From the NCBI RefSeq assembly GCF_030684315.1, contig NC_081387.1, positions 17,487,309 through 17,551,308 on the forward strand: DNA of 64,000 nucleotides, in the 5' to 3' direction. Under the pieces are notes generated by a model. That model did no database searches, was not told the origin of the DNA, and saw only the letters and a program-made list of their open reading frames with translations. A program made the position numbers and the translations under genes. The number at the start of each line of letters is the position of its first letter. Position 1 is the first letter of the stretch. The DNA comes from Stegostoma tigrinum (taxonomy: Eukaryota). Positions 990 through 63,839 of this stretch are shown here, piece after piece.

Positions 990-1120
990 ATAAAAACCGA
1001 AAGTACTGAAGATGCTGTGAATCGTGAATACAAACAAGTTGCTGGAAAAGCTCAGCAGGTCTGGCAGCATCTGAGAAGCAAAAAGAGTTAACGTGGAGAG
1101 TCTGGTGAACCTTCCTCAGA
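990..1120 (-). mobile_element. Penelope-derived short element (GCTCAGCAGGTCTGGCAGCATCTG family), decayed hammerhead
   Basis: Family body shared with the 16285, 18800, 46396, 57060 and 57643 copies. Ends in the reverse complement of CTGAGGAAGG...ACGTTAAC. Confidence 0.7.
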
Positions 1121-1849
1121 AGGGTGGACCACTGAAGAGTCTAAACAGAAGACGTACTTGTTTTACATACGAGGTGGCTTATTGCATAACAGCAATCATT
1201 ATAATTTATATTCACTTGCCTGGCATAATTACGTAGGATAATTGGGAGCTGTGCACAGCACATCTGCTCCACTTAGGAACATGTGGATCTTCACCCAATG
1301 ATGTGGCATCATCAGATTGTAACATTGTCATCAATTCCTTGAGAACAATTGCCTTGTACAATGCTTCCCTGTGATACTTTCCCCAGGGTTTATTTGTAGC
1401 AATTTCAGGGAGATTTTAACTTTTAATTCTGAGAGACGACAGGCCAATCCCAGACAGGTAAAAACACACTCGCAATGATGTTCCACATGGACACATTCGT
1501 AGGCATACTATATTTCATTGTTCACAACAAGAGAATAGAAAAAAATGATCCTGAAATTCTGCAGGTGTTACATATCATCTCTTGCCAGAATATTTGGCAT
1601 TTTCAGGGCAAACCAGTTTCCTACATTTAAATCTCACATCCCAGAAGAATCCTGCCTCGGTCCAAGCCAATACAGGGAGTGTCTGGTGAGGTACTAAGCT
1701 AGTAGCCTTCAAAGCTTCGCATGCCCAGCCTAACACCACTAGGCAGAAGGCATAAATTATCTGTGACATCAGGAGAAAGTAAGGGAAAGCTGTTAACAGT
1801 TTATCACTTCCATGCTGTGTGATAAGATGCTGCACTGTTCTGTCCATAG

Positions 1850-2165
1850 AGCTGTTGCGTTTTGGAATAACATGTTAAACTGAGAACCTACTTGTTCTCT
1901 AAAATGGTGCTATTTTGATAAAGAACAGTGGAGTTCATCAAAGTGTCCTAATCAATGTTTATCCCTCAAATCAACATCATTAAAACAGATCATCCTCTCA
2001 TTATCACATTTGTTCTCTGTGGGAGTTTGATGTATGTAAACTAGGTATAGGGATTCATCCATTATAACAATAACTCGACCTTAAGAAGTACCGAATTGCC
2101 TGTAAAGTGCTTTCGGATGTCCTGAGGTTATAATAGGAACAACAGAAATCAAAATATTTATTTCT
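1850..2165 (+). mobile_element. DeuSINE/SacSINE-like remnant with L2-type tail
   Basis: GTGGGAG...TGTAAAGTGCTTT...CTGAGG tail. Related copies at 2310-2460 (minus) and 39530-39715. Confidence 0.5.
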
Positions 2166-2659
2166 TTATTCAAGGCTGCTTCTTAGATCAGTGTGTTACT
2201 AATGGAAGAAGGAAAGAAGTGTTTGGGGAATGAAGTGGAGGTAAATAATTGGTGTTACATAGGGAAAATATAAATTATAGCATGGCTAGGCTCAATTTCA
2301 GAGCAACAGTAAAGAAAGAAAGACTTACATTTACGTAGCATTTTTACACCTACCAGATATCTCAATGTCCCTTACAGACATGGAGGTACTTTTCAAGAAA
2401 AAAAGTTGTCATTTTTGTAAGGTACAAAATGCAGCAGCCAAATTGCACACAACCAATGAGGTGATAATAATTAGATGAGGGTTGGTTAGCTCAGTGGGCA
2501 GCATAAGGTTGTTCTGGTGCAGTGGCAGTATCTGTATCTGAGTCAGAAGGCTTGAGTTCAAGCTCTACCTGCTCCAGAGGAGTGTCACACATCTCTGAAC
2601 AGATTGATTAAAAACAGGAGCTCAGTTAGCTGGACAGCAAAATGTGACAATGCTTTTTT

Positions 2660-2782
2660 TTTCTGATGAGGGGCCTAGGCCCAAAACGTCAGCTTTTGTG
2701 CTCCTAAGATGCTGTGTTCATCCAGCTCCACACTTTGTTATCCTGGGTTCTCCAGCATCTGCAGTTCCCATTATCTCTGAGA
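2660..2782 (+). mobile_element. Short Penelope-derived element with hammerhead motif
   Basis: CTGATGA-G-GGGCC/TA/GGCCC-AAAAC-GTC at 2663-2690, followed by the family body GATGCTG...CCAGCATCTGCAG. Confidence 0.7.
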
Positions 2783-4499
2783 CAATGCTGGTTCAGTTCC
2801 AGTACCAGTTGAGGTCGTAATGAAGGGCCCTTTTCAACTTTGCCGGAGGTGTGGAGACCCTCAGGTTAAACTACCACCAGTTATGTCTCCCTCTAATGAG
2901 GCTTTACTATAACCTAATAATCAGGTATTTTATTTTGCTTTCCTTCAAAATAGTACCATGGGATTTCTTATATTTGCCCAAGTAGGTAGACATGTGTATC
3001 ACTCCCTTCATCCTAGCTCACCAGTCTTGATTCTTGAGGTCAAGCCCTAGATTTGAACTTGGAAGCTTGTGATTCCCAAGCACAGCTATACCAACATAAC
3101 CACCGCTCACCCACCTCTGAACTAGGAGTTCTGGGTTCAAGCCCCATCTGCTTCAGAGGTTTGTAATAATAACTCTAAACAGGTTAACTGGAAAGTATCT
3201 AAATAATGCAGAATCAAAGACAGTAGCTTCTGCACCAGTAAAGTGGGCAGAGTTCCTTAGGGACAGGCAAGTTAGAGAACAATATGTTTTGGTTGTGGGA
3301 AATCTTAAATTATAACTTGCGTTAGAACGTAAGCAGCAAGAGTAGGCTCTGTGTCCTGTTAAATCTGCTTCACCATTCAATATTACAGCTGCCTCAATTC
3401 CACTTTCCCAACTTATATCCATATCCTCGGATTCTCTTAGTGGTCAAAAGTCTAGCAACCTCAGTGATTGAACGTACACAGCCCTGGTACAGAATTTCAA
3501 AGATTCACAACTTTCACAATGAAGAAACCTCTCCTCAGTCAGGATGAAATGGAAATCCTTTCATCTTGAGACTATTGGGCAGATTACGAAACAAAGTGTA
3601 ACGAGGGAATCAAAGTACAGATCAACTGTAATCTGAATGAATGTTGAGATCAGGTTTTGGGGTTAAAGTCCTACTCCTGGTCCTATATTCCAAAGAAATG
3701 GGTAGAAGAGAGAGTAAAAATGTATTTATATTTGTAGGAAAGGGTGGTCTATTATAAATAGAGATATTAAATCTAAATTGAAACATAAGAAAAAGGAGGC
3801 ATGTGATAAAGTTAGAGGCTAAAAACAGTAAGAAAATGTTTATGGAAGACAGAAAGCATGGGGGAGGTGAAATGAGAGATTAAAAATAGATGAAAGGGAA
3901 GATTTTACAGCAGAAAATATAAAAAGAATATATCATCAGCTTACATCAGGATATAAAAAGAAAAAGGAAAGATTATTTAAAGAGAGGGTAGGTCCACTCA
4001 TGAGTGAAGGAGAAGCACTAATTGTAAGGCATTAAGGATCAGTTGATATATTGCGTCAGTCTGTGCAAATAATGGCAATGAATATGTCAGTGTGCAGAAG
4101 AATTATGGAACAATTGACAGAGAGACAACTGCAGAACTGGTTCTGAAAATAACAGCAGAGCTCAAAAGCGAAATGAGTCACGAGGCCTTAAATGGCATCT
4201 ACCCGGTGTTGTTTAAGGAAGAATAGAAACATTTTGGATTGCTGTATCCTGTGTAGTTATGCTGGAGGACCGTACAGTACACAAGAATGAACAGTCTTCT
4301 TAAAATCACAAGCAGAAAGGTTCAGCTGGATTGACCATACTCTCAGAATCACTTGAATGTTACCGCATAGGAAAAGACAATTGAGCTCATCATGCCTGCA
4401 CAAGCTCTCCAAACAATTCACTTTGCATCTTTTTCCCTTTATCTCCCTCTAACCCTGAAAATTTTCTCTTGCAGATAACAAGGCAAATCCTTTATGAAT

Positions 4500-5030
4500 C
4501 TTTCAATTGAATCTGTGTCAAACAATGTGACGTATTATGAGTGTGCTCTTAGAAAATATAAAAAAAGAGAAAAAGCATGAATAACTAGCAATGTATGGAC
4601 TTTATCTAGGGAAACTTGCAGCACAGCTGGATTGACACCCACTCTTCATGCTGTGATCCAAGGCAGGTGCAGTGGGAAAAGAGACTGTCATTTACCTTCT
4701 TTCAAGTGTGCCTTTATAGAGCAGATCTGGAAAAAGGTGCAAGACTTTGTTTGAGGTTCATTTTGAGAAGTCCATGACACAGGACTATGCGGTTTATGGG
4801 CTGTTCCAGGGACAACCAGTGAAATAAACATCAACTACCACTGGAAGATCAACTGAGTGAAAGATGCTCTTTAGCCTGCTCAAAACCTTTAGCATGTACA
4901 AAGTAGACAAAAAAAGTTGTGCAGACTGGCATATTTCAAGGTAAAGGTCTATGTGCTGAAGGACATAGTTAAACTTAGGACAGTCATGGCAGAAGCCAAA
5001 TATATGAAGGTGGGACTGTTTAAGAATTTT
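4500..5030 (+). mobile_element. Tx1/Keno-like ORF2 C-terminal fragment
   Basis: Similar to the reverse complement of 54580-54900 (e.g. TATGGGCTGTTCCAGGGAC). Confidence 0.6.
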
Positions 5031-16760: not shown

Positions 16761-18623
16761 AATTGTATACTTCTCACACACAAATAAGACTGCCCTGAGC
16801 AGACAAACTATTTTCTTAACCTTACATACCCTCTACAGAGTCACTCTGTGAAGTCTCTCACCCAATAGTCTTTCTGCACCACACAGACCAGGAAATATCC
16901 AATCTTCAGTTCAATTCAAGGTCCTTGCTGATCTCACAGGGAGAGAGGTTGTAAAATATGCTCTGTGCCCAAGGCGAAGAGGTGTGGAGGGAAAATAAAC
17001 AAAACACAGTAAAAGGCAAAGCTAAACTTCCTGCAACTTATTACTATCCAACATCTGACGAAGAGCCCAAACTTGTCTGAATACACCACGTGGTTAAACT
17101 GCCGGCTCACACCTGTCTGTCCTCATTTTCACACAGGTGTTAACCTGTGCGATTCAAATGCTGAGTTTAAAAGCAAAAATCTTTGGGCGGGGCAGCAGAA
17201 TCTGCCGCTACCTCCACTCCACCAGCCCTTCCCATTCCTTCCAGCCGGGTATTTGATTCTTAAGGTGAGGATAATAATATTTCGGCAGGACAAGTTCTTC
17301 TTTAACAACCAATGATTAATAAAAAGACAGGACACGAGGGTCACAGGGCAGTAAAAAACAACAGAAGAAGTGGGAATCATGAATGAAGGTAAAGGAAAGA
17401 AAGGATGAAAAGGCATCACAGGATAGTGGACGGATGAATGCACAAGGTCAGGTGTTGATCTTAGAGAGAATGGAAGAGGGGTATGAAGTAAAGGAAGGGG
17501 CAAAGGAATAGGAAAGACAAAAACTGAATGCAAGGGAAAAAAAAAGTGGCAAAATCAGAAGTGATAGAGCAGATGAAATAAAAATAACATGCTGACTAAA
17601 GTCAAAGGGGCTGTATGTATCTTTAAACTCAAAATTCCTTGAGCAGAGTTTCTGGGCTGGGGGCTATTCCTCTCTTTCTCCCCCATGATGCTTTGTCTCT
17701 TTTCCTGTCTGTACCCATTCTTCCATACATCTTCAGAGGAATTGCTTGTGTGACCTTCATGCAACTGCCTCCTACCATTTTGCTGTTGGCCAGTGGGAGT
17801 CCCGCTTGCTTTTCTTTTCCAGTTATTTTTCACCTCTGTCCATTCCCCTGACTCCTTCGTTGACTAATACTCTTTTGATTCTGGCTTCTTGGGTGGATGT
17901 TGACTTGGTTGTTTCTTTACTCTACAGGGCCTCTTTCTCTCCTTGTCAGCCTTTTCTTCCTTCTGGGCGATGTTCATGTCAATGCATGTGCTGACACCTT
18001 ACTGTCCAGTTAGGGCTCGTGTTACCACATCTGACCATTGAACAGATGTGGCTTTCATCTTGGGCAAGCCTGCTTCCCTACAGAAATCGCAGCTCCTGGA
18101 GTCTTTACAGTCATTGATCAGGTGCCCCTCCTTCTTACTGTTCTTGTAGAGGATCACTTGCAGTCCGTTGAATCATGCACTGAACCCCCATACATTCGGC
18201 TTACTCTAGGCTGTCCTGCGTATGTCTAGTAACCTCCGCTTGGGAAGCTAAGTGGTGGTTGGAGGAAGTTACTGCAGGCGTCCACATTTAGGGTCACCTT
18301 GACTTGCCACTTGCTCATCCAGATCTCAAATGGGTCCATTTCATCAGTGCTGCCTCTGTCCAACTAGACATATATTCTCAGTAAGTTCAGGACATCTGCT
18401 GCAGAATGTGGGGAGTTATACATGGGATAGTAACCAGCCAGCTCCTCTATGCATGAAGGACAAACAATAGTGCTGGAGACAGGACAGAGAGTGCACCCTC
18501 ACGTCCCACCTTTTCAATGCCTTCAAGAGACACTCACATTGCTTCACTCACTGGAAGGTCACATCAAACCTACCACTACCAATCCACCACAGGGAAAGTC
18601 CTGCAGGCAGTAAATATCTGCTT

Positions 18624-18761
18624 TTTTATTTCAAAAATGTATTTTATTCAGAAAAAAAGTCTTTATGTATGTACATAACGATTAAAGCAGTTCAGTTCTA
18701 AACAGTAGCACAATGTTGAAGAAACAAATACTGGAATTTGACTCTATCCAGTCAACAAACC
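18624..18761 (-). mobile_element. 5'-truncated Tx1-family 3' tail inserted in ORF1 of the 17640-19190 element
   Basis: Resembles 54344-54480. Flanked by TSD ATATCTGCT (18615-18623 and 18762-18770). Confidence 0.65.
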
Positions 18762-18799
18762 ATATCTGCTATTTGGAACCCACAGCACAGCAATCTAGA

Positions 18800-18900
18800 A
18801 CAAAAACAGAAGGTGCTGGTAAAGCTCAGCAGGTCTGGCAGCATCTGTGAAGAAAAAAAAATCAAGTTAAAGTTTTGGGCTCAGTGACCCCTCCTCAGAT
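18800..18900 (-). mobile_element. Penelope-derived short element inserted in Keno-like ORF1
   Basis: Family body GCTCAGCAGGTCTGGCAGCATCTGTG with a decayed hammerhead end. Confidence 0.65.
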
Positions 18901-19159
18901 CTCGGACAATCTTCTTCACAAAGAAGCGTTGATCGATTGGCATAATTTCTTTAACCTTCTTTACAGTCTCCCCGACTGTGTTCTAGAGATCCTGGCCTGG
19001 GGTGCAGGGATTCCAGAGGTCAGAGCTCTGAACTGGCATTAGGCCGAAGCCAGCATAAAGATCCACCAATAACAGATCAGCTCAACTGACGATCCTCCAA
19101 CATCTACTAACCATTTAGAGATGGTCTTGAAATCCTGTCATGACTCACAACTCAGGACT

Positions 19160-19190
19160 TACACTTGATCTTAGCCAAAAGGCTGAGAAG
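19160..19190 (-). pseudogene. U2 snRNA 5' fragment (nt 5-35) fused to a retrotransposon
   Basis: Minus strand CTTCTCAGCCTTTTGGCTAAGATCAAGTGTA is 30/31 identical to vertebrate U2 nt 5-35. Confidence 0.88.
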
Positions 19191-54130: not shown

Positions 54131-56005
54131 GTGAGGCCACGGACCTGGGAATTGAATGGATGTGATTAAATGTGGGTGAGTGTATTTGTAAGCGCGTTTA
54201 CGTATGTGATGAACGGCTGCGTACGTGTGGGGGAGTAGTGTGTGAGAGCTGTGTGGGATAGTGACTGGAGCTGGTTATTTGTGTGGGTGAGCATATGTTA
54301 GTCTGTGTTTGTGCAAGGAGGAGTGTAGAAACATGTTTGTGTATTTTTAAATTGCAAAAACATATTTTATTCATGAAAAATCTTTATGTACATATCCAGA
54401 TACTAAAGCAATTCTGTACAGTCATTGGATATCAAGAAAAACAAATGTTGAAATATGACATTTCCTACAGTCACGAAAACCAAAGGCCTTTCTTACTCAT
54501 GCATGGTACGATTTACATATGTTGAGACAACCAGAGGGTCTGATAACTGAACGAACCCCTATTTAACTTGAGAAAGATCTCAGGCACTGGTCTTTTCCTG
54601 TTGCCTCTTGGCTTTAGTGCATCCCTCAGCACATAGTCGTGGATCTTGGAATGTGCGAGTCTGCAATGCTCGGTAGTGGTCAACTCCTTGCTCTGGAATA
54701 TCAACAAGTTTTGGGTAGACCAAACAGCACTTTTCACCAAATTGCTGGTCCTCCAGGCACAGTTTATATTTGTCTCGGTGTGTGACCCAGGGAACAGACC
54801 ATAAAGCACAGACTCCCATGTCACAGAGCTGCCTGGGATGTACCTCAGCAAAGACCACTACATCTCTCTCCAGACCTTCATTGCAAAGGTTCTTTCCAAC
54901 AGGAGTGACAATCTCTCTGCCAGTGCAGCCACTTTAAGGGCTGCATGTGGTAGCTCAGAGAGATTGGGCATGCATGAAGGATCTGATAAGCACTGCTCTT
55001 CTTAACATCAGCCAAGCTACATATCGGCACTGGTTAGAAAATTTTGGTGATGAGGTATTTACCTTGGCTCACAAGGCTAGGTTGAGCTGGTCACAGATTC
55101 TTGCACTTAAAGCAGATCCAAGCAGAAAATGGTGACCTGCAGGCCCTTGCTGCTTGGAATAGTCACCTTTCTCCGGCTCACATCTTTGCTGATGGACTCA
55201 GCAAAAAGCTCTATTTAACACACAAACAAGACAGTAGACAGTGGGCAGCCCTGCCTGACTCCCGATCTGATTGTGAAGCTTTCTGATTCCTATCCATTGA
55301 TTGATACTGCACTATTGATGTTGGTGTAGAGCAGTCGGATCCGATTTTGGATTCCATCCCAAGGACCTGTTTTGGCGAGCACATCCACATGCAGGTGAAT
55401 GATATCATGTCAAATGACTTCTCTGGTCCAGGCTTAGGAGTTAGCCATCCGCCCGCATGTCTTGTGTATAGGCGATTATATCTTTGAGGAGCGCACAGAT
55501 CTTAGAAATCTTCCTGCCAGTACAGCAAGGCTTGGTCAGGGTGAATCGCTAATCTCTCAGACCTGACCCGATTGGCGATGTTGTTCGGCAGGATTTTGCA
55601 TTCGGCAGTGAAATTGCTTGCCACATTCTTATTTCCTCATTGTCCCCTTTCCAGTTCTAGGTGAGGGTGACGAAACCTTTCCTCATGAACTTATACATTC
55701 TATCTTCCAGAAGCACACTGTTGTACACCTCTAGCAGATCCAGGCCAAACAAGCCCCATACAGCTGAATACATATCAGCCAGTAATCCATCACTTCCAGG
55801 AGTTTTCTTCTTTGCTAAGAATTCAATGGCCTTGGTCAACTCATCCATAACAGCTGATCAAGCCTCTCCTGGTTCTGTTGTCTAAAGCCTCCTTCGCAGA
55901 GGGCAAGATGACTGGGAGGTCATGTTGTCTGTGGGCTTCATGCCACACAGTCTGGCATTAAAGGAATTGGATGTGAGTTTGCTCGCTGAGTTGGAAGGTT
56001 AGTTT

Positions 56006-56045
56006 TCAGACGTGTCGTCACCATTCTAGGTGACATCATCAGTGA
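56006..56045 (-). ncRNA. Minimal hammerhead motif, inverted copy
   Basis: TCA-CTGATGA-T-GTCACC/TAGAAT/GGTGAC-GACAC-GTC-TGA. GAAA mutated to GACA. Confidence 0.7.
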
Positions 56046-56449
56046 GCCTCCAACGAAGTGCTGGTGTTATGTCCCACTTTCTATTTATCTGTTAGGTTTC
56101 CTTGGGTTGGTGATGTCACTTCCTGCATTGGTGATGTCACTTCCTGTTCTTCCTATTCAGAAAGCTAGCCACCAGGATACATGAACATCAGAGGAAGGAC
56201 ACCACTTTGATTGGGACAACACATCCATCCTAGGACAAGCCAAACAGAGACACACACAAGAATTCCTAGAAGCATGGCATTCCAACCGGAACTCCATCAA
56301 CAAACACATTGATTTGGAGCCAATCTACCATCCTCTGAGAAAAAGAACAGGAAATGACATCACCAATGCAGGAAATGACATCACCAACCCAAGGAAACCT
56401 AACCAGATAAATAGAAAGCGGGTCATAACACCAGCGCTTCGTCGGAGGC

Positions 56450-56489
56450 TCACTGATGATGTTACCTAGAACGGTGACGAAACATCTGA
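56450..56489 (+). ncRNA. Minimal type I hammerhead ribozyme motif (Penelope pLTR)
   Basis: TCA-CTGATGA-T-GTTACC/TAGAAC/GGTGAC-GAAAC-ATC-TGA: core, 6-bp stem II and 3-bp stem I present. ACGT of stem III decayed to ACAT. Confidence 0.75.
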
Positions 56490-57059
56490 AAACTAACCTT
56501 CCAGCTCAGCGAGCAAACTCACATCCAGAACCTCAACCTGAGCTACAAATCTTCTCAAAACTCATTAAAGGAATTGCTGATCCTCAGACTGAGATAACAT
56601 TACTGAGCCAAAATCTTCCTTCAGACTGCTCAGCACATAGTTGTCCTTGTGCACCTTTTGGAAACAAATCTGATCCTGCTCCAAGGTGCAAACCCTGAAC
56701 TGGAAAATTATCTTGGAAGTCACCAGTGCAAAATGCGAGGCTTGCTGGCTGTTCACCTCCTGGAAAACATCCTTGACGTCAACCCCCATTGTCTGCAGTA
56801 GGAGTAGGTTCTACATGCTTTTCTGGAGTTTGGATAGCTTTCCCCATCTCTCTTGCCTTCTGAACACTTTTGAAGAACCTCTTGATGTTCCTCTTCATGT
56901 TTCCCATTAGTCTGATAGAAGCTCAAAGAGGGGCTTCATGCTTCTGCAATCTGTGTAATCCCTTGTGAGCTCTTCAGTGTCTTTTGGGGTCAACAGTTCA
57001 AATTCCATGTTTCCTTGTTGGCCTGCTGGCAACAGTCAGCCAGCTGGAGAGGAACACTA

Positions 57060-57202
57060 ACTAAAAACCAAAAGAACTATGCTTGCTGTAAATGAGGAAC
57101 AGAAACAGAAACATAAGTTGCTGGAAAGGCTCAGCAGGTCTGGCAGCATCTGTGAAGAAAAAAATCAGAATTAACGTTTTGGGTCCGGTGACCCTTCCTT
57201 GA
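57060..57202 (-). mobile_element. Penelope-derived short element nested in the Keno-like LINE
   Basis: Family body, minus strand GGAAGGGTCACCGGACCCAAAACGTTAA. Confidence 0.68.
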
Positions 57203-57642
57203 CCCAGTGGCTCTGACCGAGAGCATGCAAGATGTAAAGAGGAAAGCTATCCTTGAGTGGATAAACCTGCCTTGCCATGACAGGTGTATTTATGCTGCTG
57301 TGCTGTTGCAGGGGTGCTGAAGACGTTGTCCAGCTTTGTGACTTTAATTGTTTCCATCAGGAATCTAGATGTGGTGTCCAGTTTGTAAGGCTAGGGTTGT
57401 TGCCCTGTTCCTCCTCGAGGACACCGTCCTAATCAGATGTCATTGGGGCAGAGATGAATATGGAAAGTCCTGTTTCATGTCATACTCTAAATTGAGTAGA
57501 GTTATTGTGTGCTTTGCTCCTGGTTCAGAGTGTTGTTGCTCCCAGTTTCCCAGAACTATGCTGCGCTGGGTATCTCATGGTTCCCAACATCAGAAGGTGA
57601 GGTTTCACTGGGCCCAACGTGTTGTCTAGCATTTCCAGGTCA

Positions 57643-57742
57643 GGAACAAAAACAAAGTCGCTGGAAAAGCTCAGCAGGTCTGGCAGCATCTGTGAAGGAG
57701 AAAACAGAGTTCACGTTTTGAGTCCGGAGACCCTTCCTCAGT
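57643..57742 (-). mobile_element. Penelope-derived short element nested in the Keno-like LINE
   Basis: Family body, minus strand CTGAGGAAGGGTCTCCGGACTCAAAACGTG. Confidence 0.68.
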
Positions 57743-58966
57743 TCTTTTTTTTTGCTTTTTGTTCTTTGTTTTGAACTTTGTTTTTGTTCCTGATTTATAA
57801 CATTCACAGTTCTTTTGGTTTTTATTTCCAGTTCGGGGGTTGCTCGGTTCCTTTTCCCACCTCAGTGCTTTGCTTCTTCTGTTTATGGTGATCTTTCCAT
57901 CCATCTTCATTGAAAGAGGAATCAGGTGGTGTCACTCTCCACTCTGCTGCCGGCCTGCAGTAGCCCTGTGTGACTTAAGGTTTCCCTTTCTGGTTATGCA
58001 TCGAGACCTTCCATACACCCTTATGCTTGTTCATTGTGTCCTCCTCCACTGAGTCTGTATTCTCAGGTCGAGATTTAGTTGGTCTCTGTAGCATTTTGCT
58101 TTCTTTCTCCACAAGTCTTCCCTTCCTTCTGACTGTCCCTTTTTTCTCAGTCATCTTATTGGAGGGTGATGCCTGACTGCCCTTTTAGAGTCCACTAATC
58201 ATGTTGACTATTCTGGCCATTTGTGAATGTGTGGCCTCCCCATCTTGGGCAGACCTTATCTAGGTGGCCTGCTTCCCTACACAGCTGCAGCTCTTGGAGT
58301 CCTTTGTCAGGTGCTCTTCCACTTTGCTGTTCTTTGACATGTGCCTTGATTGTAGCAGTTTGGCACAATGCAGGCTGCACCACATACATCAGGTAGCCTT
58401 GGCTCCCTCCAATCGAGAAGCTGGAGAGCGGCTGGAGGCTGCCACCTTCAGGGTCACCTTGACCTGCTGCTTACTGGTCCAGATTCTAAAGGGATCTACT
58501 AGATTGGTGCTACTGCCTTCTAGCTGTATGTACCTGGTCAGGACGTTGAGGACACTTGCTGCTGGGACATGGCAGTTGTAGATATGGAGTATAACATTGC
58601 AGTTCTTCTGTGCTGTGTGAATAAACCATGGTGCTGCAGACAGGACAGAGAGGGGACCATCACTCCCAAATATCTTCAGGAGACATTCACATTGCTTCAT
58701 GCTCCAGGAGGTCAAAATACCTTCCCCGCCTCCCCCAACCCCCGCACCGCTCCTCCCCCCACACCCGACCCCGCCACTTCATCTCTTCCCTCCTGCTGGC
58801 GAAATCCCACAGATAAAAATGTCTGCTGCTTGGAACCCATGTCAATCCGAGAACAGATGGTAAGAACTGCCGATGCTGGAGTCGGAGATGACAGTGTGGA
58901 GCTTCAGAAACACAGCAGGCCAGGCAGCGTCAGAGGAGCAAGAAAGCTGGCGTTACAGGTTGGGAT

Positions 58967-59109
58967 AATAAAATGTGAGGCTGGATGAACACAGCAGGCC
59001 AAGCAGCATCTCAGGAGCACAAGGAGATGCTGCTTGGCCTGCTGTGTTCATCCAGCCTCACATTTTATTATCTTGGAATTCTCCAGCATCTGCAGTTCCC
59101 ATTATCTCT
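58967..59109. mobile_element. Short Penelope-derived fold-back insertion
   Basis: 49-bp perfect inverted repeat (58964-59012 / 59024-59072). 15-bp TSD GTTACAGGTTGGGAT (58952-58966, 59110-59124). Confidence 0.8.
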
Positions 59110-59671
59110 GTTACAGGTTGGGATCCTTCTACAGAAATGGGGGAGGGGAAGAGTGCTCTGAAATAAATAGAGGGGAACGGATAGATGAGAGAGAAGACGG
59201 ATAGGTCAAGGAGGTGGGGATGAAGCTAGTAAAGGTGACTTTAGGTAGGCAGCGGTGATGGTTGGGTCAGTGAGGTGGGAGGAGTGGATAGGTGGGAGAG
59301 AAGATGACAGACAGGTCAGTGTGACAGAGAGAAGGGGCTGGTCTTGGGATGAGGTCGGAGATGGGGAAATTTTGGAAGCCTGTAAAGTCTACATTGAGAC
59401 CATTGGGTTGTGGACTTCCAAGGCAGAATATGAAGTGCTGTTCCTTCAGCTTCCGCGTGGGATTGTTGTGACACTAGAGGAGGCCCAGCATGGACATGTC
59501 ATCCTGGGAGTGGGAGGGGGAGTTAAAGTGGTTCCCGACTGGGACGTGTTGTCGTTTGTTGTCTGTTGTTTGACACGAACTGAGCGTAGGTGTTCTACGA
59601 GGTGGCCTCTGAATCTTCGCTTGGTCTCACCGATGTAGAGGAGGCCACATTAGGGACAGTGGATACAACTG

Positions 59672-59990
59672 AGGCGGCACAATGGCACAGTAGTTAGCGC
59701 TGCTGACTCGCAGTGCCAGGGACCTACGCTCAATTCCAGGCTCGGGCGACTATCTGTGTGAAGTTTGCACATTCTCCCCGCGTCTGCATGGGTTTCCTCC
59801 GGGTGCTCCAGTTTCCTCCCAGAGTCCAAAGATGTGCAGGCTAGGTGAATTGGCCATGCTAAATTACCTATGGTGTAGATGAGGTGGCTTATAGGGGGAC
59901 TGGATCTTGGTGGCGTGCTCTGAGGTCCAGTGTGGACGTGTTGGGCCGAAAGGCCTGTTTCCACACTGTAGGGATTCTATATTTCTATAT
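59672..59990 (+). mobile_element. HE1-type V-SINE nested in a Penelope element
   Basis: GGCGGCAC...GTTAGCGCTGCTG head and V-domain. Confidence 0.85.
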
Positions 59991-61215
59991 CTAATAGACC
60001 ACGTTAGCAGATGTGCAGGTGAACATCTGTTTGATATGGAGGGTTTTTTTGGGGCCTAGGATGGAGGTGAGGGCGGAGGTGTAGGGGCAGGTGTAGCACC
60101 TCCTGCAGTTGCAGGGAAAGGTGCCGGGGGTGGTGGGGCTGGTGGAAAGTGTGGAGCGGATGAGAAAGTTGCGGAGAGAGCAGTCCCTCTGGAAGGCAGA
60201 TAAGGATGGGGAGGGAAATCTATCCTCTCTCACCTCCATTCCAGGCCCCAAAAAAACCATCCATATCAAACAGATGTTCACCTGCAAATCTGCTAATGTG
60301 GTCTACTGTATCCGCTGTTCCTGATGTGGCCTTCTCTAAATTGGTGAGACCAAGTGGAGACCGTTTTGTAGAACACCTACGCTCTGTTCATGATAAATGA
60401 CAATACCTCCCAGTTGGGAACCACTTCAACTCCCCCTCCCACTCCCTGGGTGATATGTCCATCCTGGGCCTCCTACAGTGTCACAACGATGCCACCCAGA
60501 ACTGGAGGAAGCACCTCATATTCCACCTTGGAACTCTACAACCCAATGGTCTCAATGTAGACTTAGCTTCAAAATCTTCCCACACCCGACCTCATCCCAA
60601 GACCAGCCACTTCGCTTATCACCACCTCCTTGACCTGTGCATTTTCTCTCCCACCTATCTACTCCTCCCACCTCACTGACCAATCCCCACCACCACCTAG
60701 CTACACTCACCTTTTACTAGCTTCACCCCTGCTTCCTTGACCTATCTGTCTTATGTTCCATCTATCCGCTCCACTATCTGCCTGGTGTCACCATGCTCCC
60801 CCCTCCCTATTTATTTCAGAGCCTGGTGCCCCGCTCCCCTCCCCCATTTCTGAAGAAGGGCCACCGACCCAAGCTTTCCTGCTCCTCTGATGCTGCATGG
60901 CCCGCTGTGTTCCTCCAGCTCCGCACTGTGTTATCTCAATCCAAGAAGAACCTTTTCACAAAGAAGCCCCAATCTATTGGTGTTCCTTCCTCCACCACGT
61001 CCACATTCATTTTGACCTGGTTCTGGACATGCTGGTCTGGGGCTCAATCACCCACCATGGTTGTAGCTTTGGTCGGCTGTTGACCAAATTAACATTAGCC
61101 AAAGCCAGCATAAAGACCCACCATTAGCAGCTCAGCTCAACCGACTATCTTTCCAAAGCCCAATCACAATCTAGTGGCAATCTCCCAATCCACTGATGAC
61201 TTGAAGCTTGGAGCT

Positions 61216-61241
61216 TACACTTAATCTGAGCCAAAAGACCG
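61216..61241 (-). pseudogene. U2 snRNA 5' fragment (nt 10-35) fused to a retrotransposon
   Basis: Minus strand CGGTCTTTTGGCTCAGATTAAGTGTA is 23/26 identical to U2 nt 10-35, with the same junction as the 19160 copy. Confidence 0.75.
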
Positions 61242-62435
61242 CATGTGGGTGTTTATGGTTATGTTTGTGTCTGTTTGTGCAGGTGTGCGCACACGTGCGT
61301 GTGTGTTAAGGGATTGTGTGTGAGAAGATTGCATTAATGGCTGATTGTCCATTTTGACTGAGTGAACACATGTTAATGTGTATGGCTGAGTGTATGTGTG
61401 GGTGAATGATTGTGCATGAATGAGTGTAAGATTAGATGTGAGTGAGGGGGTGAAAATGTGTGTGGGAGGGTGAGTCTGCATGACTGTGTATGTGTGGGTG
61501 AATGTGTGTTACTAATTGTGTGTGGGTGAGTAAGTGTGTGTATGTATGAGAGCGTGTGTGAGTGTGTGTGAAAGTTTGTTGTAAATGTGTCTGTGGGGTA
61601 ATTGTGGGTATGAATGGGAGTGTGTTTTCTTTTTATGTGTGTGCGTGAAGTTGTGTTTGTATGAGGGTATTCTCATGAGGGAGGGGGTGTTTGTGAGTAT
61701 GAGGGAATGTTTGTATAAGTGAGAGTGCGTTGGTAATGGGGGGCAGTATTAGTATGAGGATGTGCTGTGTGTGAGGTAATAGTTATGTGTAGGAATAGGA
61801 ATGTGTTTGACTTTAAGTATATATTAGTGTGTGAGAGAGGGTGTGTGTGTACGTGAGAGAGAGATGGATGATATATTTGAACGTTTGTATTTCTGCATAC
61901 ATGTGTGATTAAGTACATGTAAGTGAGGGAGTATTTGTGTCTAAGTGAGGGGAATTTCAGGTTGAGTGCATGTGTTTGCATGTTTGAAGGTGTATTTGTG
62001 TGAGGGTGTGTGTGTATGAGAGTTTGTGTATGTAGTGGCATGTGTGAGTGGGTGTTTGAAGTTATGTGTGAGGGGACTTTGATGAAGGGGTATCAATGTA
62101 TGTGGGTATTGCGTGTGTGAGTGTATGTGTGTGAGGCAGTGGTGTGAGTGGCAGTGTCAGTGTGTGGGTGCATGAAGGGCATATGAGTATGTGAGGGAGA
62201 ATGATGAGGTCTGTGAGGATATGTTTCAATGTGTTGTGAGAGTGAGTGAGTGTGTGTCAGTGAGTAAGGATATTGAGTGAGGGGGTTTTGGTTTGAGTGC
62301 CGAGGTGTCAGCAAACGTAATAAGTAATTGGCACACACGCGCGCACACACACAGTGTGAGTGAAGGTGTGTGAGGTGAGGGCTTCTGGTGGGGTTGTGAA
62401 TGATGGGTTGTCTGTATGTGTATGTGAGTGAGTGT
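61242..62435. repeat. Degenerate (TG)n-rich tract (continues at 54170-54343 across the LINE insertion)
   Basis: TG/GTGA-rich low-complexity sequence. Confidence 0.85.
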
Positions 62436-63764
62436 TTGAGGGTTTTTTCATTGAAATTAGCTCGAGCATGAGATGGTGCTGTTGCCAGTAGCGATCTCCC
62501 ACTTAGCGTTGCTGAAGCAAACCTATTTGACCAAGAACAGATGCTAAATTGAAAGGCTGGGAACTGGTCCTACCTTGCAGCCAGGGAGATTTGTAAATGC
62601 ATGGGAACATCCAATGCATATTTTGTCCCTGACCTTTGAACAGCTGAAATAGTTTGAAAGCTTGCAGATCTTTGTATCTAGGGAGACAGCACTATCTTCT
62701 TGAAAGGAATGGCTGCAGAAGGTGTATTGTTTTTGAAGGATACTCCAAAATCTATTGTCAGAAGATAACATGGCCCCTTTAAGGGGAAATGAACCATTAT
62801 TCTGTGTTCTTTCATCCCTCTGTTGGAAGCAATTGCATTCCAGATTGCTACAGGAAGCTTTCAATCGCAGGAAGTGAGTGGGCGGGAAATGGACAGTGAG
62901 TAGGGAGGCCATCAAGGACTAGTGGAGTAAGGAGATATTAACAGAGAGGGACAGATGAGGATGAGAAAGAGACTAGTTATGAGATTAAAAAAAAAGGGCG
63001 AGGCAGTCTAAAGAGAGAAAGTTAGAGGTTACGTGAGAAAAGGGGAGTGAGAACTGGAGAATGAAAAGGAGAGGGAGACAAGGGAAGAGGTGATGGAGAG
63101 AGGGTGTGAAAGGAAGAGGAAGGTGGGAGAGAAGGAAGGAATTGAAAGTGAATTGGAAGAGATTAAGAAAGGAGGGTGAAAAAGAGAGGGAGAATGTGGG
63201 GTGTGGAGCTGAGCACAAGAGGGAGATAGAGGAGTGTCAGGGAACAGACAGAGAGATACTGAGGGAGATGAAGATGGAAGGTGAGAGGATAAAAAGCCAG
63301 AAAGGAGTGTCATACAAGATGAAGAAAGGGGACAGGTAGGCGTGTCATCTTGGGGGACACAGGGGTGATGGTTGAGGGGTTGTACATTGCTGTTTTCTGG
63401 TTCCCTGGTTGTGACCCTCTGTGTAACACAGAGCCACGATTCGGGGGTAAATGTATGCAAGGAATGTTGGTTATAGAAATATAGGATGACCTGCACACAA
63501 TAGGAGAACGCAAAGAGGCGTGCAACAGGCATCTTATTAGTACGCAAATAACCCCACTCAGCAAACCCTCAGTATTACAGTCTCATATAATCATGCAAAT
63601 GCACCCGCTGGAAAAGTCCTCTCTCCATTGCCACTGATAAGAGAGTGGAAATTAAATATCTGACAACATTGATAAGAACAAGGTGTAGCAAAAGTGTCAT
63701 CCTCTCCTTGCCCCCTCTCTCTAATTTAAGCCATATAAAAGAGATATGCTACTACACAGAACAA

Positions 63765-63839
63765 AATTGCATTTGTGACTATGTATACACATAAAGATAT
63801 GTTTCATGAATAAAGTAGATTTTTGAAATTTAAAAAAAA
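63765..63839 (+). mobile_element. Tx1-family 3' tail fragment
   Basis: CATAAAGAT...TTCATGAATAAAGTAGATTTTTGAAATTTAAAAAAAA matches the reverse complement of 54344-54400. Confidence 0.6.

Follow-up and report, generated by a model that had tools for sequence, protein, structure and literature searches.

In the accessible parts of the reports on Keno and Utopia, the 3′ flanks of both elements begin at U2 nt 39 (PMC4640811, PMC6136364). The Tx1-Mar elements of crocodilians, including Tx1-11_Crp, are Keno-related Tx1 retrotransposons that lie outside U2 genes, and one of their families carries a U2 head; the available sections of the 2015 paper that describes them ascribe the heads to template switching and leave transcription open (PMC4494074). 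The same sections describe R2, which resides in 28S rRNA genes, as co-transcribed with its host gene (PMC4494074). How snRNA-headed retroposons are transcribed is a puzzle because their U1 or U2 heads contain no internal promoter, and the accessible portion of a 2018 paper still treats such transcription as undemonstrated (PMC5786205).

Here we describe a family of U2-headed LINEs from the shark Stegostoma tigrinum, two degenerate copies of which lie in the 64,000-nt stretch of DNA that was analysed (the window). The description is less novel than an earlier note on this DNA suggested, since U2-headed, Keno-related Tx1 elements outside U2 genes have been published for crocodilians (accessible text of PMC4494074). 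We found no published description of U2-headed Keno relatives in a shark; subscription papers, Repbase, or supplements may contain one. Protein fragments from Scyliorhinus and Heterodontus, at 64–65% identity, fit the shark origin. We argue that the window copies are remnants of an old Keno-related LINE whose full-length RNA probably started at the U2 start, the promoter likely being borrowed by source copies inside U2 genes.

Results

Two U2-Headed LINE Copies in the Window

Both window copies carry a real U2 head, as the earlier note had proposed. Compared with the genome's own U2 genes (L032), the two heads are more similar to U2 (Table 1) than the top match to U2 nt 10–35 in 100 shuffles of the window (19/26); the Rfam match of the copy 1 head falls under the gathering score. 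The claim that the copies begin with the 5′ end of U2 is right as to the origin of the head and wrong as to its first base: copy 1 starts at U2 nt 5 and copy 2 at nt 10, neither at nt 1. The shared junction holds exactly, with U2 nt 35 followed in both copies by GTGTA and then AG.

Copy 1 is a 1.3-kb 5′ fragment whose ORF1 stops near 17837. The LINE 3′ end nested in its ORF1 is flanked by a 9-bp duplication (18762–18770 and 18614–18622). We ruled out reading copy 1 as a SINE-like short unit made of head and 3′ tail (570 bp), because the tail is the nested insertion with its 9-bp duplication and ORF1 continues beyond it. Copy 2, which had been called near-complete with a non-U2 3′ flank, matches both LINE ORFs and aligns over 2566/5340 positions of a young relative, about half, so it is not near-complete; the flank below 54344 is indeed not U2. 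Within copy 2, an inverted-repeat insertion (window 55968–56527) resembles by eye the target repeat of family Y, described below. In themselves, both window copies are unremarkable fossils of the proposed U2-LINE process.

The 5′ UTR contains a conserved stem-loop whose 27-nt core hardly differs between the old lineages and the young ones; it includes a UUCG hairpin, and its outer stem shows two compensatory pairs. An Rfam search of the 5′ UTR for a ribozyme gave no match, and by eye we take it to lack the HDV, hammerhead, and twister layouts.

Table 1. Positions of LINE-related features in the window
Feature	Position	Strand	Basis or remark
Copy 1, U2 head (U2 nt 5–35)	19160..19190	(-)	30/31 vs. 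genomic U2; Rfam RF00004, E 7e-4
Copy 1, body: 5′ UTR and broken ORF1, without 3′ part, two interruptions	17837..19159	(-)	blastn/tblastn vs. young relative
Conserved 5′ UTR stem-loop core	19032..19070	(-)	49-copy alignment and alifold
Tail of a short, unrelated repeat, inserted into copy 1	18798..18902	(-)	Window self-blast; also 57641–57745, 57100–57199
Nested 5′-truncated 3′ end of related LINE (poly(A) signal, A tail), in copy 1 ORF1	18623..18761	(-)	
Copy 2: degenerate LINE, internal deletions and several later insertions	54344..61241	(-)	A-tailed 3′ end at 54344
Copy 2, U2 head (U2 nt 10–35, C23 variant)	61216..61241	(-)	23/26 identity
Copy 2, ORF1 pieces	57978–58838 and 60939–61184	(-)	
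Copy 2, endonuclease	56583–57417	(-)	
Copy 2, RT	55122–55971	(-)	
Copy 2, candidate target-site duplication, 5′ copy	61242..61252	(-)	9/11 with 54332–54342; CA-rich, weak alone
Copy 2, candidate target-site duplication, 3′ copy	54332..54342	(-)	
Lone 3′ end of related LINE	63747..63838	(+)	Self-blast
ORF2 C-terminal fragment, related LINE	4661..4983	(+)	

A Keno-Related Family with Two Junction States

The window family is an L1/Tx1-type non-LTR retrotransposon, A tail included. Pfam identifies zf-CCHC (ORF1 zinc knuckles), Exo_endo_phos (APE endonuclease), and RVT_1 in its young relatives, and the best solved structural relative is L1 ORF2p. In an RT tree, the window copy, lineages A and B, and relatives K and Y form one clade (SH-aLRT 100); this was a quick tree of 101 rows, and projecting the degenerate copies onto a Y query biases them toward grouping with Y. 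Next come amphibian proteins and then a teleost clade with BAD04856, which may be a Keno. In this tree, the link to Keno runs through in-genome elements at the Keno site. The earlier assignment to the Keno/Tx1 group is upheld to this extent.

We use A for the window's family, with its junction at U2 nt 35, and B for a sister lineage with its junction at nt 34. The 3.2-Gb genome was searched with the first 166 nt of the element, head included, and 40 of 178 candidates were scored, a copy counting as headed at ≥17/26 matches over U2 nt 9–34. Heads were present on 29/36 distinct copies read, a share inflated by the query's own U2 head. Seventeen of these headed copies join U2 at nt 35 and carry seven additional bases (A, the type of both window copies), 11 join at nt 34 (B), and 1 is ambiguous. 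The LINE body begins at the identical base across the headed copies read, and their upstream flanks are mutually unrelated. Genome searches with junction patterns returned 31 matches (control 8) and 11 matches (control 0); the total stands at 42 distinct U2-headed copies, a count enriched by head-containing queries, with 4 placed on head and junction alone. Exact genome matches to U2 nt 12–34 (n = 22) comprised 12 full U2 copies, 4 members of the LINE family, 4 of a separate short element, and 2 truncated U2 retrocopies. Truncated retrocopies in the genome include L159 (nt 1–40, with a flanking duplication) and L150 (nt ~8–55).

Within-group likeness is 68% for A, 73% for B, and 93% for the young family Y; at 68%, A must be old and dead. 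In a 5′ UTR tree from which head and junction were excluded, a 99/99 clade unites 10/11 B copies with the young relatives and contains no headed A copy. Junction and body cosegregate imperfectly: L030 combines an A body with a B-like junction, and L149/L217 have a B junction and an ORF1 that groups with A. The junctions are nevertheless fixed rather than sporadic, as the earlier note expected, with two states (nt 35 and nt 34) that largely track body lineage. For the 12 copies with both ends, the mean flank score was 5.2 for matched pairs and 3.4 for the 132 mismatched ones (p 0.006), which places the U2 head inside the inserted unit; duplications are plain by eye in 3/12 (L204, L211, and window copy 2).

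Two further readings of these copies were considered. The A/B heads could be viewed as an eroded U2 1–52; the in-register ATCAG match can come from CpG decay (L025, L026, L028), and this reading was set aside. A self-targeting hotspot in ORF1 may be suggested by the 7/44 loci that fuse a 5′ piece ending at 270–421 to a 3′ piece; the breakpoints differ and ORF1 rarely resumes.

Relatives Inside U2 Genes

In relatives K and C, the LINE is followed by the published Keno 3′ target TCTGTTCTTATCAG, from U2 nt 39. K sits exactly at the Keno site; the variant U2 gene that holds it has lost ~410 bp of the target on the 5′ side of K. At L321, U2 2–52 lies upstream and U2 39–186 downstream, with a 14-nt duplication. 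When the genome was searched for the 5′ end of L321, 74 candidates came up, of which 40 were scored and 30 read. In 25/30 a U2-type promoter and variant U2 1–51 precede the LINE 5′ end (lineage C); the other five are three promoterless loci that keep the head and this junction, one LINE in the short element's head, and one family Y copy. Among eight loci that were extended, L428, L430, and L434 have 3′ poly(A) followed by U2 ~41–185, giving the complete layout of U2-type promoter, U2 1–51, LINE, poly(A), and the rest of U2. L431 and L432 show the lineage C junction with the promoter absent, L431 in non-U2 DNA inside a ~70-nt duplication; the 3′ end of L429 lies in family Y's target, and L427 and L432 had no recovered 3′ end.

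The lineage C junction falls at U2 nt 51/52, vs. 35 in A and 34 in B, so C serves as an analogy and not as the parent of these lineages. Dispersed C copies branch outside the in-gene C loci. Because the in-gene loci lie in an amplified segment, they may represent one to a few events. A large amplified segment, seen on contigs C12, C13, and C10 and on many small contigs (L091–L108, L385–L414), has variant U2 genes that are variously empty or filled with K, C, or the SINE. At L433 (G000:C35:25306400-25316399), a lineage C LINE lies within the short element's head, part of which is duplicated. In the main U2 array (L110, G000:C2:162956200-162966199), whose tandem unit measures 7.6 kb, every U2 gene is followed at a short distance by an internal LINE fragment (Y 1091–4384, 89%).

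Family Y (L186–L198, e.g., G000:C33:3478500-3486999), whose copies are 93% alike and 88–90% like K, nests inside the U2-headed lineage C. It inserts at a single site in a common, presumably Penelope-like repeat that bears a hammerhead-like motif, and this repeat forms the 3′ flank in 13/13 loci. As its 5′ leader, Y has inherited a copy of this target that has since diverged.

The genome also holds a separate ~150-nt non-coding U2-headed element with a duplicated head segment (L141, L153, L157, L158). Its in-gene copies (L098, L232, L235–L248, L335–L338) follow the promoter of variant U2 genes and are themselves followed by U2 from ~37 onward. The earlier suggestion that the LINE supplied the sequence of a U2-headed SINE was not supported, as body similarity between the two is absent at E≤0.01; the LINE may still act as mobiliser of the short element.

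Targets of A and B and a Search for Their Promoter

U2 sequence followed 0/44 unselected A/B 3′ ends, which bears out the earlier view that the family had lost its U2 specificity. A U2-like motif in the 3′ flanks scored 4.07 vs. 3.67 of 14 (p 0.074, not significant) in a test that left out 4/30 loci without a recognisable end, including L090, which looked U2-like. Among the 44 ends, the only flank in common was an unnamed repeat, in which 3 ends of B type lie. The 3′ flanks of B copies L204 and L331 (L007, L025) lie in one unnamed ~100-nt repeat, a hint of a second preferred target.

A targeted search for an A run followed by U2 nt 39–53 returned 91 matches (control 27), 35 of which are one amplified insertion (K). 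Reading 43 of the other 56 revealed three LINE–U2 junctions: L295/L321 (young) and the old-type L319 and L320, in which poly(A) is followed by U2 39–62 and 39–57, respectively, and then by a further 3′ UTR fragment. L319 and L320 are placed with A copies, outside the B/young clade, and appear to be what is left of LINEs inserted in tandem into U2 DNA; both are 5′-truncated, which leaves no head to be typed. An exact gapped pattern joining the old-type 3′ end to U2 was also tried and discarded: of its 5 matches, just one, the already known L260, shows U2-like bases preceded by an A tail; for the remaining four, the verdict came from the matched string alone.

No promoter-like DNA was found upstream of A/B heads in 41 loci from the junction-pattern searches or in the 36 loci read before them (overlapping sets). 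We read 34 of 54 U2-promoter candidates, which proved to be 13 U2 genes, 2 degenerate variants, and 19 genes with the short element inserted; A or B LINEs behind a U2 promoter numbered 0 among these 34/54 loci, in a search that is incomplete because it missed the lineage C loci. The earlier idea of source elements in U2 genes, with a U2 promoter upstream, thus has its layout in the in-gene loci of lineage C but did not extend to A/B, where none was seen behind a U2 promoter and all heads read lacked one.

Discussion

We consider it likely that the RNA of the window family began at the U2 start site, because its source copies likely sat in U2 genes and used the U2 promoter. Promoter borrowing is likely in turn because lineage C displays the layout of an in-gene source as well as dispersed copies that share its junction. 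By analogy with lineage C, A and B would have used in-gene sources of this type and would have been transcribed from them.

Variation within the heads bears on where they came from. Head variant C23 occurs in 14/27 A and 0/15 B copies, and C27 (n = 10) always accompanies C23; both are also present in variant U2 copies (L047, L048/L231), L048/L231 with promoter-type upstream DNA, as expected if different host genes supplied the heads. The A/B heads are ~83% like U2 and A body pairs 68% alike, so the heads are about as near to U2 as the bodies would be to their ancestor, and little space is left for independent head drift. Moreover, no head extends upstream of U2 nt 1, and shared upstream DNA is never attached to the heads. 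These features, together with the in-gene sources seen in lineage C, argue against an alternative in which one or two capture events, through an in-gene ancestor or template switching, gave the element a head that then became fixed, and dispersed masters relied on flanking host promoters or an internal signal and no longer needed U2 genes. We regard this account as unlikely, although lineage-bound junctions fit it equally well and it agrees with the absence of in-gene A/B copies among the loci read, with the 3′ ends and the motif test reported above, and with the sister family Y, whose leader is likewise inherited; the accessible text of Kojima 2015 interprets the crocodilian heads in this way (PMC4494074).

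A separate template switch to U2 snRNA at each insertion, with a preferred break at ~nt 34–35, is very improbable: truncated U2 retrocopies do occur (to nt 40 in L159, near nt 55 in L150), the U2 junction of another short element, unrelated to this one, likewise falls at nt 34/35, and repeated U1/U2 additions are documented in SINEU-2, but the SINEU-2 junctions differ among themselves by as much as 22 nt (accessible sections of PMC4494074), whereas here two states are tied to body lineage, the body start base is constant with most copies read headed, and C23 sits on A bodies only, so that the linkage of junction and body largely refutes this account. A U2 truncation hotspot at nt 34–35 does not appear in the accessible part of PMC5322556.

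If the U2 promoter was borrowed, masters inside U2 genes would produce RNA from U2 +1 through the LINE. This assumes that an snRNA promoter can give rise to a long, translatable RNA. A relaxed endonuclease would then scatter daughters that keep the U2 head and leave the promoter behind, and those outside U2 genes would be dead ends without an upstream promoter. Occasional re-insertion into a U2 gene would renew the source; on re-insertion, the head may pair with the host U2 gene, so that the junction is kept and the head sequence takes the host variant. A and its sister B would have had in-gene source copies that were since lost by U2 gene turnover.

A broader proposal, which we see as evenly balanced between true and false, is that one Keno lineage maintained a source–sink cycle through A, B, and C, in which the only masters were rare in-gene copies driven by the U2 promoter, the scattered headed copies were dead ends, and heads were renewed by the host variant, the same route powering the U2-headed SINE and preceding the retargeting of Y. 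Such a cycle, if true, would answer how snRNA-headed retroposons get transcribed. In-gene and dispersed copies that share one junction provide concrete loci at which promoter borrowing can be tested, and a single genome shows how a LINE can pass from site specificity to dispersed families and to families with a new target.

Comparison with Described Systems

R2 has a restriction-like endonuclease and an HDV-like ribozyme and stays site-specific, whereas the U2-headed family gave no Rfam ribozyme match. The likeness to R2 lies in a probable reliance on the promoter of a host RNA gene; a source behind such a promoter was seen in lineage C and not for A/B among the loci read. SINEU-1/-2/-3, as the accessible text describes them, are likewise dispersed retroposons with a short U2 head and no known internal promoter (PMC4494074). 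However, they are short (<500 bp) and non-coding, and the present family is a coding LINE whose headed A/B copies run on into ORF1/ORF2; the SINEU-like element of this genome is separate and has no body sequence in common with the LINE.

The family shares with Keno an APE-type endonuclease and an RT, and K and C share its U2 nt 39 site. Keno is U2-specific, inserting from nt 39, as found in K and C, whereas A/B are dispersed and carry the U2 5′ part along (available portions of PMC4494074, PMC4640811, and PMC6136364). Tx1-Mar is similar in comprising Tx1 LINEs that group with Keno and lie outside U2 genes, some families having a U2 (or U1) head, a trait present here in 42 copies. Compared by description, Tx1-Mar elements prefer Mariner-N4_AMi, (PMC4494074, accessible text), and A/B showed no common target in 44 3′ flanks, apart from a few B copies in one unnamed repeat. 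In contrast with Tx1-Mar, a sister lineage here, lineage C, sits behind U2 promoters.
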